Source of the DNA: Candidatus Woesearchaeota archaeon
GTDB taxonomy: Archaea > Nanobdellota > Nanobdellia > Woesearchaeales > WAPY01
Assembly: GCA_049700835.1 (NCBI GenBank)
Contig: JBNAUL010000003.1
Coordinates: 9,775 to 73,774, forward strand
Reading direction: 5' to 3'
Length of the DNA: 64,000 bases
Shown: in pieces, positions 27,001 through 33,000 of the stretch
Layout of the letters: the number at the start of each line of letters is the position of its first letter
Position numbering within the stretch: the stretch's first letter is position 1
Position numbers: made by a program

Positions 27001-30000
27001 TATTGAAGGCAAGCGTAAATATTCTGCAGAGCATAAAAATCGTAGTAAAAGTATTTTATATTATATTTGCTTAACAGTTTTCTTCTCAAAGATTCATTGT
27101 TTCCGTACAAAATGATGGCAGCGTCTGCTTCTCTCTTGTTGGCATCAACAAAAGTGCTTGCATGAGTTCTCCTTAAAAATAAAACCTTTCTGCCTGTTAG
27201 AGCATTTATTGCAAAAGATGTTTCTCCATGAGGAGTTATTATTACCTCATCTTTGTTTGTGTTTTGAATAATGAAATTAGCTATTTCAAATTGAGCTTTT
27301 GTCAGGTCATCATAACTAAAGCCGATTTTTGACCACCTATCTTTCTTGAAATTGTTTATTTCAATAAAAAATCCACCTGCAACCAAAAGAGAAGAAAAAA
27401 TTAAAACGCCAATTTTATAAATCATTTCCTTATTAAACTTGTATATTAAATATACTCCTGAAAATGCAAGAATGCTTCTCAATAGAATGAAATTAACATT
27501 AAATGCAAAATAACCGAAAGAGGTTTTTATTAATGGTTGTGTTATTATAGGATGAATTAGTCCTAAAAATCCTGTCAAAAATAATATTTTTATTAATGAA
27601 TTTCTTTCGCTCTTGAAAGCAAATAAAGATAATATCCCTGCAATAACTAACAAGCTAATTATAGATTGATAAAAATTTTGAAAATTAAAAAAATAGTTCT
27701 TTAATGCATCAGAAATTATGCTTAAATTTCCTGAAGGACTGTAATAAATATACTCTTGCCACGGATTTAGGGTTTTTCCGTGATAATAAATGATTAGCGG
27801 AGCCCAATAAAGCAGCGCAATAGGAATTCCAACCAAAAAGATAATTAAATATTTTTTCGCTGTGTTAAAAAACAATCTTAAAGAAATCATTTTTTTTGAT
27901 TTCTTAAACTCGATTTTTTTGTTATTTGTGGTTTCATATAAAAACAATAACACTAAAAACAAAGATATACCCAAAAAAGCAGCAACATGGCTTAAACCGC
28001 TTACGCCTAAAAAAATTCCTGCAAGAATTATATTTATGAAATCAGCCTTGTTTTTCAGTTGGTTGTTGAATATGAGATAAAAACTTATTGGTTGTAACAA
28101 TATCACAACATATTTAAAAAATGATGTTGGAACGCTGGCTGGAATTCCTAAAGCATAACTTATTGCAAACAATAACGCAATTGTTTTGTCTTTGAACAAA
28201 AATCTTCCAAGAATATAAGAAAGAATGATTGAAAAGGCAACAATCGCAAGCGGGAACAGAATTGCTGCTTTTAGTATGCTTATAAAAAATATTTTTGAGA
28301 ACAAAAAGATTAAAACATAGAGCAACCATGGATAGTGCTGCCATTCATTCAAGTAATGGTTGCTCTTAAAAACAGAACCTCCATAGTAAATGTGCAGGAC
28401 ATTTCCAAAATGATAGTAAACATCTCCACCATACAGTGGGCCTGGAAGTTGTTTTAAGTCCTTTAAAATCTGAAATTCATAAACAAGTATTATTAACAAA
28501 AGAAAAATAAGAGCATAATCCTGCCAATCAAGTTTTTTGCCCAAAAAATCACCCCTAAAAATGCCGGCTTTTATCTTGTTTTTATTTTAAACACAAATAA
28601 AGTAACTCAAAGCATTTTGTTCTTTTAATTGCTTAAAAAACTTTTTTTTATGCTTATTAATCTGACTATTTCCTATCTTTAGATTATATTTATCTTTTTG
28701 CTATTGCACATAAAAAACGATTTTAATCATCAATCTTATACAGCTAAATTTTATTTATTTTACTTTCTTATTTTATTATTTTAAATTTCATTCTATTTTT
28801 AATTTTATTTTTATTCAATTCTTAAAACCTTAACCTTGAATACCAAGGTTTTATTTGCAAGTTCCCCTTCTTTATAACCTTCCTCAGGCTTTACAACAAT
28901 TTTTTTTTGTTCTCCTGTTTTCATTCCTAAAACTTGGTTTTCCAATCCCTTAATCACTTGCCCGCTTCCAACGCTGAATTTAAGAGGGCTCCTGAATAAA
29001 TAATCCTTGAAATCAGAGTTCTTTGTTACATTAAGTTTTTCAAAATTTTTTATTGAGGAATCAAAAACAGTTCCGTTTTCAAAATAACCAATATAATCAA
29101 TGGTTATTGAATCTCCTTTGCTAACAACTTCCTTTGGCTTCCAACTAACATTCCAAACATAAATGTTTGTTCCAAAAACCCCTGATTCATGGGTATAAAG
29201 CTTGAAGTGGTTCAAACCAACAGCATCCATAAAATATAATCTTGTGAATAAACTCTTGGAAATTTCTTTTGAACACCAAAATGCCATGGGTTGATCTTTG
29301 TTCAGCAAAACAACAAGGGTGTATGGAAATTCAGAATTGTTGAATTCTTTTTCTATTATGCCGTCGTTTGTTGCAAAAACAACTGATAATGGTTTAATGC
29401 TCTTGGTGTTTGTTGGAATAACAACATCCAACTTTTCCAAATCAACAATGCTTGGCAGGTATTGACCTTGAAACATGTTGACGCAGTTAAGCTTTGTTTC
29501 ATTTGCAAAGGAGCAGGTTGTTAAACCAGTTATAAAGCCAGGCCATGGAGAAACCCATGCTTCTTCTTCTTTTGAACTAAGGATTGAAACTTCGTCGTAG
29601 TATCTTCTCGCTTCCTCTTGGCTTAAATTAAGATTGTTAATCATATAATCAACAGAATTTCTTCCCATTGTTTTAACAGCATTTAGTATTTTTGCCCTTC
29701 TGAAATCCCAAAGCCCGAAATGTGCCCAAACATTTGCTTTGCCAATCATATCTTCACTAGTTATTAAATAGTCTTCAGGAGGTTCGCAATGAGTGTAATT
29801 TAATATTCTAAGAATTTTTTCATCACTAAAACCAAGGTTTCTTAAATAATTCGAAGCGTTTTCTTTAGTCATCATTATTATCTTTCTTACAACGCTTACA
29901 GAAAACTCTGTGTCATTGAATTCTTTGTCAACTTCTTCAAAAGCATTGTTTGAACCGCAATCGAGCATTCTTAAAATTGCTATGCTTTCATCCTCATCCT

Positions 30001-33000
30001 CGCTAACCAATAATCTTCCAAGCCAATAAGTTTGTGGAGAGTTTTGAGTTGCTCCGTCAGCAGTCACGCTTCTGTTAGCAAAATACTTGAACCAATGCCC
30101 AAAGTCCCACCAAGAATTTATTATTGCATTGGTGCTAGCATTTTCATTTATCTTTGTAAGTGCAGTATACCATGTTTTATTTATGCTCGGAATGAAAGTC
30201 CTTCCTGCTTCTATTCCTGCTTTCACAGGAACTATCATCAACGCAAGTATGAAAGCGAAAACAACTACCTTTACAATATAATCTTTCTTTAAATCAAAAA
30301 TCCTAGACAACTCTTTCCCAGAAAACTCAACCAATAAACCTAATTCTATTCCCAAAATCATTGTTGCAACAGGCATCAACAGAACCAAAAATCTTATACC
30401 AACTAAACTTGCATATATTGCAACAGCATACCAAACAAAAAATATTATTGGCATTAATGAATTATGAATTAAACTAAACTTTTCTTCAGAACCTTGACTG
30501 ATTTTTATTATTTTTTTGTTAAATACAATCAGCAAGAGTCCTATGAATGAAAAGCACAGAATCATTTTTTGCACAAACATGTTGCTGTAGCCATTGCTAA
30601 TAGCGCTTAGAATATCATCCCATCTACCTGCATTCAGTTCAGCAACTGTTGTGAAAATATTTGGCCATAAGGTCTTCTGCTTAACGCTTGCTTTTAGCTC
30701 TCTTGATTTCAGCGCTTCTATTGGAGCATTAAAGTAAAATTTTGGTCCTTTTAAAACGCTCACAAAAACAAATGAAAAAGCTAAATACATCAGAATGACA
30801 AGCAGGTATTTTTTTGTTGTTTTTTCCTTGAAAAAAGTCATTATTCCTAAAAAGCTTTTTTTCTTTGCAAAAACCAAATAGACTATGATTGTTAAAAAAT
30901 ATAGCACAAAAGAAATTCCTAAAATGTCAAATAGATACCACCAACCATTCCAAGAAAGGGCAAATAATCCTGTGAATAAACCGCTTAGCGCAGAATATAT
31001 TATTCTTTGCTTACTGTCCTTAGCATAAACTGCCTCTACAAACGCCCAAATTATCAGGACAGGGAACAAGATGTTGTAAATATCGTCATCAGAACCTGCT
31101 GTTCTCCTTATTACAAAAGCATTGATTGTTATGAGCAGCGATGATAAAAATCCACCATATTTTCCAGCAATTCTGTTGCCTATTAAAAAAGCAAATACTG
31201 CTATTATTAAAGACAGGATTACAGGCACATAGAAAGATGCCTGCATCAAGGTCAAACTGTTATTAAATGGCTTAAGCATTTTGTAAACAAAAACTATCAT
31301 GTATGGGTGGATTGCAGGATAAGCATAGGTTCCTAGAGGAGCAACCATCAAATTATCATAAGGTCTTCCATTTCTTATCTCGTCTCCGTACATTCCTTTT
31401 TCCAACAAATTTCTTGCATATCTGAGCCAATGATACGAGTCCAAATCTCCTAAGAAAACATATGTTTTATTTCCTATTTGGTATTGGAATTCCTTTTTTA
31501 AGTAATCAGATGTCTGCTTTACCTGTAATTCTATTTGCTCATTGTTAGTCTTTAATAAATGATTGAAATTATTTTCAACATAGGAATTCTTTTGCTCTTC
31601 AGGAAGATTAGGGAATTGCTGTTCAATCTGCGTTTTCAGGTTTTGCTTTATGTAGGAATAAACATTGTTCCTTGCAATGTCGTCCATTATTCCTAATTTT
31701 GTAGGCAACAACCTTATGTAAAGAGTAAATATTATAATTAAAATAATTATAATTAATGTTGAATGCTTGGAAAAGAAACCCTTGACTTTTCTTAAATCAA
31801 AATTTAATTCTTCTTTTTCTTCATTTTCATGATTTCTCTCTCTGCCATGTTTTTCTGTGGCTTCATCTCTGCTCGTTCTTTTCTTATTCTTCCTCTTTTT
31901 GAAAGGATTAAGTTTTGAAAAGTTAATGTTTAGTTCTTCACCATTTTCATCTTTTTCCATTAAAACCACCACCAAAGCAGTTTTTCTTTTGAATAACAAA
32001 AATTCCAATAACTTTATTAATTTTTTTATATGGTATCCCTACATTGTTTATAAATCTATTCCCAAACACCTGTTTTTGTTCTGCTCTTAAAAAAAATTCT
32101 GAAAGATATCTTAAAAATTCATCAGAATAAACCAATATTAACAATTAAAAAATAGTAAAATTTATAAAGAAATGTTCTATTTTATATTAGAACTAAAAGC
32201 AAACAAAAGAGCGGAGAGGATAAAAATGGAAGATGTTTCTAAAACAACTTTGGCAATTTTGCTTATTTTGACAATAATTCTCTCAGTTATTGGAACTTGG
32301 ACAACAATCTCAACGCTGAATAAAGTAAGCTACAAAGAACAACAAAAAAACAACAATAACGGAATTGTTTCAATGACAATAGCAAAACCGAACGATGGAT
32401 TTAAAGAAGCAATGGTAAGCCTTTCTATTGTAAAGGAAGAAAAAGGAGGTTAAAAAATGGCAAAAGAAGTTTCTAATAGAACAATAGCTTTGCTGTTGGT
32501 TTTGGCTTTGGCTATATCTGTTTTCGGAACATTTTTGAGCTTGCAAAGAATTTCAAGATTAGGAGTAACAGGATTTGCTTCAACAGGAATAACAAATCTT
32601 ACCATAGCAAGCACAAAATCAATAAATGTTCAAGTTGCAAATATTGACTTTGGCTCTGGCTATGCAACAGACGGAACAACATGCACGATGGAAAGCAATG
32701 CAACTGCTCCTGAAACAAACTGTAATGGTGCTAGTAGCGCAGGGATTGATTGGAACGAAAGGCCATTGAGCAGTTATGGGGGAAATCCATACTTTATTAT
32801 AAATAACACAGGAAACATAAATACAAATATAAGCGTTAATGCTTCTGATAATGCAACAACTTGGATTGGAAACTATGCAGGAGTTGGTGCTTGGATTGGA
32901 GGGCATGCAGCTACAGAAGCTCAGAATGCTTGCGGAACAATAAATACGACCTATCAAACTTTGGCAACAGGAGATCCTGTAGTGCTTTGCACCGGAACCG

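Follow-up and report, generated by a model that had tools for sequence, protein, structure and literature searches.

Coordination of N-glycosylation with protein folding has been examined in depth in the endoplasmic reticulum of eukaryotes but is almost unknown in archaea, in which both N-glycosylation and the folding of surface proteins take place outside the cell, without ATP. To our knowledge, no general foldases have been described for the archaeal cell exterior. Eukaryotic oligosaccharyltransferases (OSTs) have thioredoxin subunits, MagT1 and Ost3/6, and the oxidoreductase activity of MagT1 is reported to be required for glycosylating sites that folding would hide (PMC4137057). Human OST-A binds FKBP11, a lumenal FKBP whose ligand pocket is buried by CCDC134; FKBP11 is a separate, ribosome-recruited membrane protein, reportedly dispensable for the glycosylation phenotype tested and proposed to act as an adaptor rather than an isomerase (PMC12804085).

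Here, we describe an archaeal OST, AglB, that carries an FKBP domain on the same chain. The window analyzed is a 64,000-nucleotide stretch of a woesearchaeotal contig, and all coordinates are window coordinates. The host is a small archaeon of hot-spring origin, with a genome of 1.07 Mb and a completeness of 98.7%. The gene occupies 28811..31960 on the minus strand as a continuous open reading frame of 1,049 codons (stop at 28811-28813), and its translation contains no internal stops; the longest possible frame (28811-32008, minus strand) starts at a TTG and would encode 1,065 aa, with the called gene of 1,049 aa lying inside it. It is practically inconceivable that the fusion is an artefact of assembly or gene calling. 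Besides the stop-free frame, the AglB–FKBP junction is spanned without differences by contigs of two studies (28637-30161, possibly from the source sample itself, and 28960-29440), and the same architecture recurs among the 120 database proteins listed (92 of them), in about 41 genomes of a separate sample, and in 50 of the best 150 cluster representatives at 50% identity. The fusion is thus real and recurrent across many independent assemblies.

Four regions can be distinguished along the protein, all encoded on the minus strand. Residues 1-58 (31787..31960) form a charged, disordered N-terminal tail, rich in Lys, Arg and Glu and with pLDDT <50 over residues 1-52 in the AlphaFold2 model, which we take from solved OST topology to be cytoplasmic. 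Residues 59-590 (30191..31786) constitute a GT-C membrane domain with a long external loop 1, assigned by Pfam STT3 and hydropathy and containing D172/D174, D291-D-D293 and T438-V-A-E441. The external AglB catalytic core, assigned by Pfam STT3-PglB_core, and a beta-rich peripheral domain follow at residues 591-945 (29126..30190), with the WWDFG motif at residues 617-621 (30098..30112, placed by conserved columns and the STT3A alignment), D737/K741/W745, and cysteines 668, 725, 816 and 826. Finally, residues 946-1049 (28814..29125) form an FKBP domain of archaeal type in which the bulge insertion is present and the insert-in-flap (IF) chaperone domain absent. Pfam matched STT3 (PF02516) at residues 171-577 (2.7e-30; 106.6 bits, cut-off 24.5), STT3-PglB_core (PF21436) at 614-752 (1e-7; 33 bits, cut-off 23), and FKBP_C (PF00254) at 946-1046 (4.2e-20, HMM positions 5-94 of 94; 72.3 bits, cut-off 21.1); the ranges agree with those in the genome-wide survey's note, and the E-values differ slightly.

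That note had also placed the FKBP domain outside the membrane, and our rescan agrees: no hydrophobic segment follows residue 590, and no membrane segment was found after residue 600, where the highest 19-residue Kyte–Doolittle hydropathy is 0.84. Because no membrane segment separates the FKBP domain from the external core that precedes it, the domain should be extracellular, at the outward-facing side of the membrane, as judged by topology and homology. The WWDFGHW stretch was recovered from residue 617, and the nine hydrophobic segments counted earlier became about ten between residues 59 and 586; a better guide to topology than this count is the fold match to PglB, which has 13 transmembrane segments, over 830 aligned columns. 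Of the 16 sequons in the whole protein, 13 lie at residue 594 or beyond, and residues 591-945 contain 10 N-x-S/T sequons.

AlphaFold2 modeled the 1,049-aa protein with a pLDDT of 90.8 and a pTM of 0.86. Foldseek matched its body to PglB (6gxc, E 9.8e-19, TMt 0.67), AglB (7e9s, 5e-13) and STT3A (6s7o, 7.5e-13), and the STT3A chain of PDB 9n9j ranked seventh. The acidic, loop-5 and WWD motifs of OSTs are intact. D174, D291 and D293, acidic residues of external loops 1 and 2 whose counterparts in solved PglB and AglB bind metal and acceptor, and T438, V439, A440 and E441 of the loop-5 T/S-x-x-E motif are invariant in 113 sequences, as are W617, W618, D619 and G621 of the WWDFG motif, with F620 nearly so. 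In the stretch D737-M-I-G-K741-A-N-V-W745, D737, K741 and W745 are likewise invariant across the 113 sequences. The canonical DK motif is D-x-x-K, and a DK or MI motif forms the pocket for the +2 Ser/Thr; the spacing here fits M-x-x-K-x-x-x-W rather than D-x-x-K. A profile alignment with human STT3A brought the DPY and D-x-D/E motifs into register and equated WWDFG with SWWDYG; the loop-5 T-V-A-E motif was not aligned. The narrower subfamily TIGR04154 did not reach its threshold (43 bits against 450). The motifs point to a catalytically competent single-subunit OST (AglB), to which, taken jointly with the role proposed below for its FKBP domain, we give roughly even chances. PF02516 has a single match in the assembly, in line with the earlier statement that this is the only STT3/AglB of the genome.

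The FKBP domain is connected to AglB by a short, ordered linker (residues 941-950, pLDDT about 92), and its modeled strands span residues 951-959, 965-968, 993-996, 1018-1023 and 1039-1048, with a helix at 1004-1010. Foldseek matched the tail to FKBP13 (4nnr_A, TMt 0.79; 2pbc_B, TMt 0.82) at an rmsd of 2.4-2.5 Å and 37-38% identity, and PDB sequence matches were 1ix5 (best, 9e-11) and 2pbc. The survey's note had offered neither a structure nor active-site residues; the confident model now provides an FKBP fold, and between 85 and 94 of the 94 fused homologues retain Y956, F966, D967, I1003, Y1029 and F1041. Pocket residues were mapped through the FKBP13 alignment to FKBP12 Y26, F36, D37, V55, I56, W59, Y82 and F99. 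Among the 94 homologues, the individual counts are 94 for Y956, 94 for F966, 93 for D967, 50 for V1002, 85 for I1003, 94 for G1005, 94 for Y1029 and 93 for F1041. The W59-equivalent is Leu in this protein, as in 8/94 homologues, and Phe in 83/94. Pocket conservation and the confident model favor a working proline pocket, and from these residues we infer that the domain would have prolyl isomerase activity.

None of the 94 fused FKBPs has the IF insert, their flaps measuring 11-20 residues. Between the Y82- and F99-equivalents, the flap of this protein has 11 residues, the shortest class (10/94 sequences), whereas the aligned cytosolic and anchored FKBPs have about 60 to 160. Sequence comparison thus identifies the domain as an archaeal SlyD-type FKBP that has lost the IF chaperone insert. 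Loss of this insert strongly reduces the protein-folding activity of SlyD-type FKBPs. Every one of the 94 fused domains carries at least one sequon, and N1036-x-T occurs in 87; in the genome's three cytosolic FKBPs this position reads AGK. A match to TIGR00115 (trigger factor) covers residues 994-1048 alone (2.1e-11; 43 bits, cut-off 180); we rejected trigger factor identity, as the full-length architecture is absent and the match is confined to the C-terminal half of the FKBP domain.

The genome's remaining three FKBPs have the IF insert and lack a signal or anchor, and no cyclophilin or parvulin was found in the genome. The fused domain is therefore the only predicted external prolyl isomerase, and the genome's only FKBP with a predicted extracellular location. 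Stand-alone FKBPs of the same order carry an N-terminal membrane anchor or a signal that we regard as lipobox-like in 5/5 examined, so external FKBP function exists in the lineage. These proteins are external too and share about 40% identity with the fused domain, but have 280-308 aa, their own anchor or signal, a very long IF insert and no link to AglB. In a tree, a branch with an SH-aLRT support of 96 separates the fused FKBPs from the stand-alone anchored FKBPs. The fusion is also present in five of the 18 genomes that encode a stand-alone FKBP with a long insert, a count in which anchors were examined in five of the stand-alone proteins, none of them from the five double-carrying genomes. 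Fusion and stand-alone FKBP are thus not simple substitutes.

A homologue search with residues 600-1049 returned 1,055 matches at E<=1e-5. Among the 120 listed, 92 combine STT3 and FKBP (our protein included), 26 are STT3 proteins without FKBP covering 76-77% of the query, and 2 are fragments, exactly the split reported before. The fused homologues (94 analyzed) share 37-84% identity. The earlier view of the fusion as the usual woesearchaeotal form was not supported: in a sample of 401 species-level genomes from this order, about 41, belonging to 16 families, carry it, and about 90% lack a fused FKBP. The earlier list was rich in fusions because the query included the FKBP domain. The AglB tree requires five changes of state, at least four of them forced, whether gains or losses. 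On both counts the fused FKBP is dispensable in evolution. Close relatives without FKBP end at the last AglB strand and keep the prolines and cysteines of the external domain.

The gene lies within a glycosylation cluster, near sequon-rich surface proteins. The next downstream gene (26742..28544, minus strand) encodes a 600-aa membrane protein with no Pfam, NCBIfam or PDB sequence match; its AlphaFold2 model (pLDDT 92.7) has a GT-C fold that Foldseek related to AftA (E 1.4e-9, TM 0.6) and to STT3/AglB/PglB (E 1e-9 to 1e-7), making it a putative GT-C glycosyltransferase. Further downstream on the same strand lie a GT2 glycosyltransferase (25889-26626; PF00535, 3.5e-39) and a UDP-GlcNAc 2-epimerase (24778-25902; PF02350, 2.3e-112). 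On the plus strand, 38134..42639 encodes a 1,501-aa Ig-domain surface protein (Pfam Big_9 and He_PIG) with 96 N-x-S/T sequons (6.4 per 100 aa), a likely AglB substrate.

With moderate confidence, we propose that AglB-FKBP is a competent OST whose external FKBP domain, tethered to it, helps the clients of AglB to fold. These clients would be unfolded, proline-containing surface proteins just past translocation, the same ones that AglB glycosylates. The peptide-binding site of AglB may hold the unfolded chain, standing in for the lost IF chaperone insert, while the FKBP pocket would bind or isomerize prolyl bonds near the sequon. Sequons would then stay accessible, or folding would speed up after glycan addition, in a compartment without ATP; shared clients, this order of events and a coupling of glycosylation to isomerization are what we infer. 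A stronger form, in which the fusion is a self-contained surface station that glycosylates and folds, the acceptor site functionally replacing the IF insert, capturing unfolded segments of surface proteins and passing nearby prolyl bonds to the FKBP, and which would represent an independent prokaryotic coupling of OST and foldase, reached in eukaryotes through accessory subunits, seems to us possible but rather doubtful. Arguing against a helper are the Leu at the W59-equivalent, the flap of the shortest class, the loss of an insert that contributes strongly to folding activity in SlyD-type FKBPs, the evolutionary dispensability of the domain, its coexistence with stand-alone FKBPs in some genomes, and the buried pocket and adaptor role of human FKBP11, the one OST-associated FKBP studied so far (PMC12804085).

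This precedent, in which CCDC134 buries the ligand site of FKBP11 at OST-A, also underlies the unlikely alternative that the domain is a non-catalytic docking module that uses its pocket to hold a fixed partner, for instance a surface or secretion component or an AglB loop, and positions the OST (PMC12804085). The short, ordered linker with its high pLDDT suggests a fixed position, and the truncated flap of this subclade fits as well; however, the pocket, including the polar D967 and Y1029, is almost invariant despite the divergence of the 94 sequences, and no candidate partner was identified. Somewhat less probable still is that the main role of the FKBP is that of a holdase, which delays folding so that more sequons are glycosylated, with isomerization irrelevant. 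AglB requires flexible acceptor segments, and sequon density is very high in the neighboring surface proteins, both in favor of a holdase, but the IF insert, the holdase-bearing part of SlyD-type FKBPs, is exactly what the fused domains lack. Such a holdase would be a functional analogue of Ost3/6 and MagT1, the latter needed for sites that folding would hide (PMC4137057). We think it improbable that the FKBP works on AglB alone, chaperoning or stabilizing the large external domain from within the chain, with no client role: that domain has the nearly invariant P727 and P728 and four invariant cysteines, and the model packs the FKBP close through the short linker, yet these prolines and cysteines are also present in close relatives, which manage without it.

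The fusion suggests a physical coupling of sugar attachment and folding in surface proteins. An OST and a prolyl isomerase domain on one chain offer a direct handle on their coordination, as the two activities could be separated by truncation or point mutation. Single-subunit OSTs are tools of bacterial glycoengineering, with a yield limited by folded acceptor sites; an OST that naturally comes with its own folding domain would therefore be worth testing there. If the station described above is real, it would provide a natural template for single-chain enzymes acting on hard-to-glycosylate proteins; if the FKBP is an inert adaptor, the finding reduces to lineage-specific domain decoration.

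Compared with solved AglB, PglB and STT3 (7e9s/3wak, 5ogl/6gxc, 6s7o), the woesearchaeotal protein shares the GT-C membrane domain and external core, together with WWD, the acidic motifs of EL1 and EL2 and the T-V-A-E loop; a putative Ser/Thr-pocket motif resembles DK. It alone has about 105 additional C-terminal residues, the FKBP domain, and its WWD and DK-like motifs are set apart by a helical insertion; no FKBP was found in the solved OST chains matched by sequence and fold searches. Full-text literature searches found no covalent fusion of an OST with an FKBP or other foldase, and AglB plus FKBP again retrieved one unrelated paper. The survey's statement that no OST is known to carry a foldase domain needs a qualification: these searches bear it out for fused domains, but foldases or FKBPs that associate with OSTs as separate proteins are known (MagT1, Ost3/6, FKBP11). 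Short archaeal and SlyD FKBPs (Methanothermococcus FKBP17, 1ix5) likewise have the bulge insertion and a flap that ends in HPL-x-(G/N)-K-T-L, but are cytosolic and have the IF insert, whereas the 94 fused domains are external by prediction and lack it. PrsA, PpiD and FkpA are membrane-anchored or periplasmic bacterial foldases, and trigger factor is ribosome-bound. They likewise station an isomerase where unfolded chains emerge, without ATP, but pair it with a dedicated chaperone domain; in AglB-FKBP, the partner is a glycosyltransferase. Ost3p/Ost6p and MagT1/TUSC3 also place a folding-modulating enzyme at the OST, coordinating folding and glycosylation of one chain (PMC4137057), but these thioredoxin-fold proteins are separate subunits and act through disulfide chemistry; the archaeal helper is on the OST chain itself, has an FKBP fold and would target prolyl bonds. 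FKBP11–CCDC134 at the OST-A translocon (PDB 9n9j) similarly sets an FKBP beside STT3 on the non-cytoplasmic side (PMC12804085). The two associations belong to different lineages and probably arose independently, and the parallel with the eukaryotic accessory factors Ost3/6, MagT1 and FKBP11 hints at convergent solutions. Foldase-assisted OSTs with separate subunits are already known; the covalent fusion on one chain, as far as the searched literature goes, is not.

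The aglB–FKBP gene (28811–31960, minus strand; coordinates for this finding are window coordinates) is stop-free and encodes 1,049 residues, within an open reading frame that starts at TTG (28811–32008, minus strand). Pfam assigned STT3 to residues 171–577 (2.7e-30), STT3-PglB_core to residues 614–752 (1e-7), and FKBP_C to residues 946–1046 (4.2e-20, HMM 5–94 of 94). Hydrophobic segments were confined to residues 59–586, the WWDFGHW motif starts at residue 617, and the maximal 19-residue hydropathy beyond residue 600 was 0.84. The junction between the two parts was spanned without differences by contigs from two differently coded hot-spring metagenome studies, one of which may be the source sample. 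Only two DNA runs, both labelled as hot springs metagenome, were listed as containing the gene, and no RNA run was. The genome itself (1.07 Mb, four contigs, 98.7% complete) yielded one match to PF02516, in agreement with the genome-wide survey's note that this is its only STT3/AglB protein, and four matches to FKBP_C, among which the AglB-fused domain scored best.

We then assessed the oligosaccharyltransferase (OST) part. Across an alignment of 113 homologues, D174, D291, D293, T438-V-A-E441, W617-W618-D619, G621, D737, K741, and W745 were invariant, as were four cysteines (668, 725, 816, and 826). The profile of this alignment matched human STT3A (1.4e-28), PglB (2e-22), and AfAglB (1.2e-14), and the D-P-Y, D-x-D, and SWWD motifs of the family aligned with their STT3A counterparts. 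The Ser/Thr-pocket motif reads D-M-I-G-K-A-N-V-W, a spacing that, as we understand it, fits neither canonical form exactly. An AlphaFold2 model built with the same alignment, supplying the structure prediction that the earlier note had lacked, reached a mean pLDDT of 90.8 and a pTM of 0.86, with disorder only in residues 1–52; its top Foldseek matches were PglB (6gxc, E 9.8e-19, 830 columns), AglB (7e9s), STT3A/B, and yeast STT3. Sequence and model together argue that the OST part is intact. Between the WWD and DK-like motifs lies a six-helix insertion (residues 640–730; 29771–30043, minus strand), which contains the invariant C668, is followed directly by C725, and was covered by no printed alignment to solved OSTs.

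The FKBP domain (residues 946–1049) gave its best PDB sequence matches to archaeal FKBP17 (1ix5, 9e-11) and ER-lumenal FKBP13 (2pbc, 3.7e-9), and Foldseek superposed the tail on FKBP13 with a TMt of 0.79–0.82, an rmsd of 2.4–2.5 Å, and 37–38% identity. The active-site residues, unchecked in the earlier note, were mapped via the FKBP13 alignment and counted in 94 FKBP-bearing homologues. Y956, F966, G1005, and Y1029 were kept in all 94, D967 and F1041 in 93, and I1003 in 85; we take these to be equivalent to FKBP12 Y26 (Y956), F36 (F966), D37 (D967), I56 (I1003), G58 (G1005), Y82 (Y1029), and F99 (F1041). The position equivalent to W59 is Leu in AglB-FKBP, Phe in 83 of the 94 fused homologues, and Leu in 8. 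At the level of sequence, the pocket looks intact. Relative to FKBP13, the fused domain contains a 17-residue bulge insertion, a feature shared with archaeal FKBPs, and its flap is shorter; flap length was 15 residues in 63/94 fused domains and 11 in 10/94, AglB-FKBP among them. It lacks the insert-in-flap (IF) chaperone domain, which was found in none of the 94 fused FKBPs, and in the alignment its flanking 'LANKTL' pairs with 'HPLAGKxL' of the other FKBPs of the genome and of anchored relatives. The missing IF domain and the flanks shared with IF-bearing FKBPs argue that the fused domain belongs to the SlyD/archaeal type of FKBP and has lost the chaperone insert.

This domain follows the external AglB domain without a further hydrophobic segment, and in all solved OSTs known to us the domain C-terminal to the last membrane helix lies on the non-cytoplasmic side; the FKBP domain is thus predicted to be located outside the membrane. 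The distribution of sequons (N-x-S/T) also points to an outside location: the external AglB part and the FKBP domain carry 2.8–2.9 per 100 residues, the membrane region 0.4. The connection between AglB and FKBP is short and conserved: unfused relatives stop right at the final AglB strand ('VWKVDWEGK'), in fused proteins 14–43 residues separate W940 from the first FKBP tyrosine (15 in AglB-FKBP), and the linker was modeled with a pLDDT of ~92. At least one sequon was present in each of the 94 fused FKBPs. In the FKBP flap, the sequence carries an N-K-T sequon (residues 1036–1038; 28847–28855, minus strand); N1036-x-T was kept in 87/94 fused FKBPs, and AGK occupies this place in the three cytosolic FKBPs of the genome. 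This site lies beside the pocket and may be one that the OST glycosylates in its own FKBP domain.

The gene is set among glycan synthesis genes and heavily sequon-laden surface proteins. Directly downstream on the same strand, a 600-aa membrane protein (26742–28544, minus strand) returned no sequence match from Pfam, NCBIfam, or the PDB. It was modeled with a confident GT-C fold (pLDDT 92.7), nearest to mycobacterial AftA (E 1.4e-9 at TM 0.6) and OST catalytic subunits (STT3/AglB/PglB, E 1e-9 to 1e-7). P36, G39, G40, and D41 ('GPLYGGD') are invariant, and the WWD motif is absent. Its family is narrow, with 40 database matches, the named ones from Woesearchaeota and Nanoarchaeota. This neighbor may be an outer-face lipid-linked-sugar transferase or a divergent second OST-like enzyme. 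Also downstream of aglB, on the same strand, are genes for a GT2 glycosyltransferase and a UDP-GlcNAc 2-epimerase. On the opposite strand, within a few kb, lie Ig-domain surface proteins, one of them with 96 sequons in 1,501 aa (38134–42639, plus strand). Together with 35523–38102 (plus strand; 24 in 859 aa) and 32457–33119 (plus strand; 9 in 220 aa), it forms a cluster of predicted surface proteins of very high sequon density, which are likely major AglB substrates. Two large, very cysteine-rich open reading frames imply many extracellular disulfides: one at 7350–13550 (plus strand; 84 Cys in 2,066 aa), with a weak match to an 'acidic double-disulfide repeat' model, and one at 42672–45062 (plus strand; 82 Cys in 796 aa).

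The other three FKBPs of the genome (176, 159, and 231 aa) carry IF inserts and are presumably cytosolic, given their charged N-termini and the lack of an anchor. No cyclophilin (PF00160) or parvulin (PF00639) matched in this genome, which is 98.7% complete. Its prolyl isomerases thus appear to be exclusively FKBPs, comprising three cytosolic IF-type proteins and the AglB-fused domain, making the latter its only predicted external prolyl isomerase. Elsewhere in the order, five higher-scoring stand-alone matches were retrieved; all were 280–308 aa long, and each had an N-terminal membrane anchor or a signal that we take to be lipobox-like, together with an unusually long IF insert (about 160 residues) (L006 1491–2417, minus strand; L007 1928–2770, plus strand; L008 2–859, minus strand, cut by the contig end; L009 1464–2369, minus strand; L010 228–1070, minus strand). 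Such proteins, which appear to be cell-surface FKBP chaperones of DPANN archaea, occurred in ~18 of 401 genomes of the order, five of which (G043, G030, G037, G028, and G026) also encode the fusion; fused and stand-alone forms are therefore not mutually exclusive, and a complementary distribution was ruled out.

Next, we asked how widespread the fusion is. Repeating the earlier search with residues 600–1049 reproduced its outcome, with 1,055 matches and, among the 120 listed, 92 fused proteins, 26 unfused proteins, and two fragments; since FKBP formed part of the query, fusions are over-represented in this list. With the same query, 267 of 401 species-level genomes sampled across the phylum matched, and only 35 among the matches listed extended through FKBP (33 without G242 and G395, flagged as unpublished), all from the same order. 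In a sample of 401 genomes of the order queried with residues 900–1049, FKBP lay inside an open frame of at least 880 aa in 38 among the matches listed, and three more were cut by contig ends, placing the fusion in ~41/401 genomes and 16 of the coded families among those matches. All six genomes of the window's own family carry it. Among 1.84 billion 50%-identity representatives, 50 of the best 150 matches spanned the junction. The fusion is therefore widespread yet a minority form, and not the common form in Woesearchaeota that the survey's note had proposed. Four cluster representatives that scored well against the fused FKBP (P0183, P0188, P0194, and P0195; 345–758 aa) contain 4–6 tandem FKBP-like stretches.

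A FastTree phylogeny of the AglB part only (116 rows from the fusion-enriched list, omitting the query duplicate P0002 and the fragments P0022, P0080, P0044, and P0055) required five changes between fused and unfused states, at least four of them forced by supported branches, which rules out a single clean FKBP gain on this tree. In a separate FKBP tree, of 118 columns only and with few outgroups, the 94 fused domains fell on one side of a branch and seven stand-alone FKBPs on the other (SH-aLRT 96), a topology compatible with a single origin of the domains. Depending on where the root lies, one acquisition with several later losses could account for both trees.

The fusion had been described as visible in public annotations, only not discussed. 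Consistent with this, full-text searches of open-access papers and bioRxiv returned no description of an OST–FKBP fusion, nor did term searches within a 2024 review of archaeal N-glycosylation (PMC11407970), the Agl24 paper (PMC8993221, which cites Nikolayev et al. 2020 on AglB evolution, a paper outside these searches), and a Nitrosotalea genomics paper (PMC5767755); as far as searched, the architecture is visible yet not discussed. The broader claim that no OST with a foldase domain is known holds for FKBP fusions in this literature and has to be narrowed for folding enzymes at large, as MagT1 is one that works in an OST (PMC4137057).

The FKBP domain may isomerise prolines, merely hold chains, or dock a partner. 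The intact OST, the intact-looking pocket, the external location, the short connection, the loss of IF, and the glycan and sequon setting make a tethered folding helper the most economical reading: the FKBP domain would help fold the clients of AglB, and AglB would supply the grip on the unfolded chain. Alternatively, the domain may dock a partner as an adaptor without isomerising, and here the human precedent is a caution, since FKBP11, whose pocket is buried, adjoins STT3A and is interpreted as an adaptor (PMC12804085). MagT1 is a precedent on the other side, as it shows that site occupancy can require a folding enzyme within an OST (PMC4137057).
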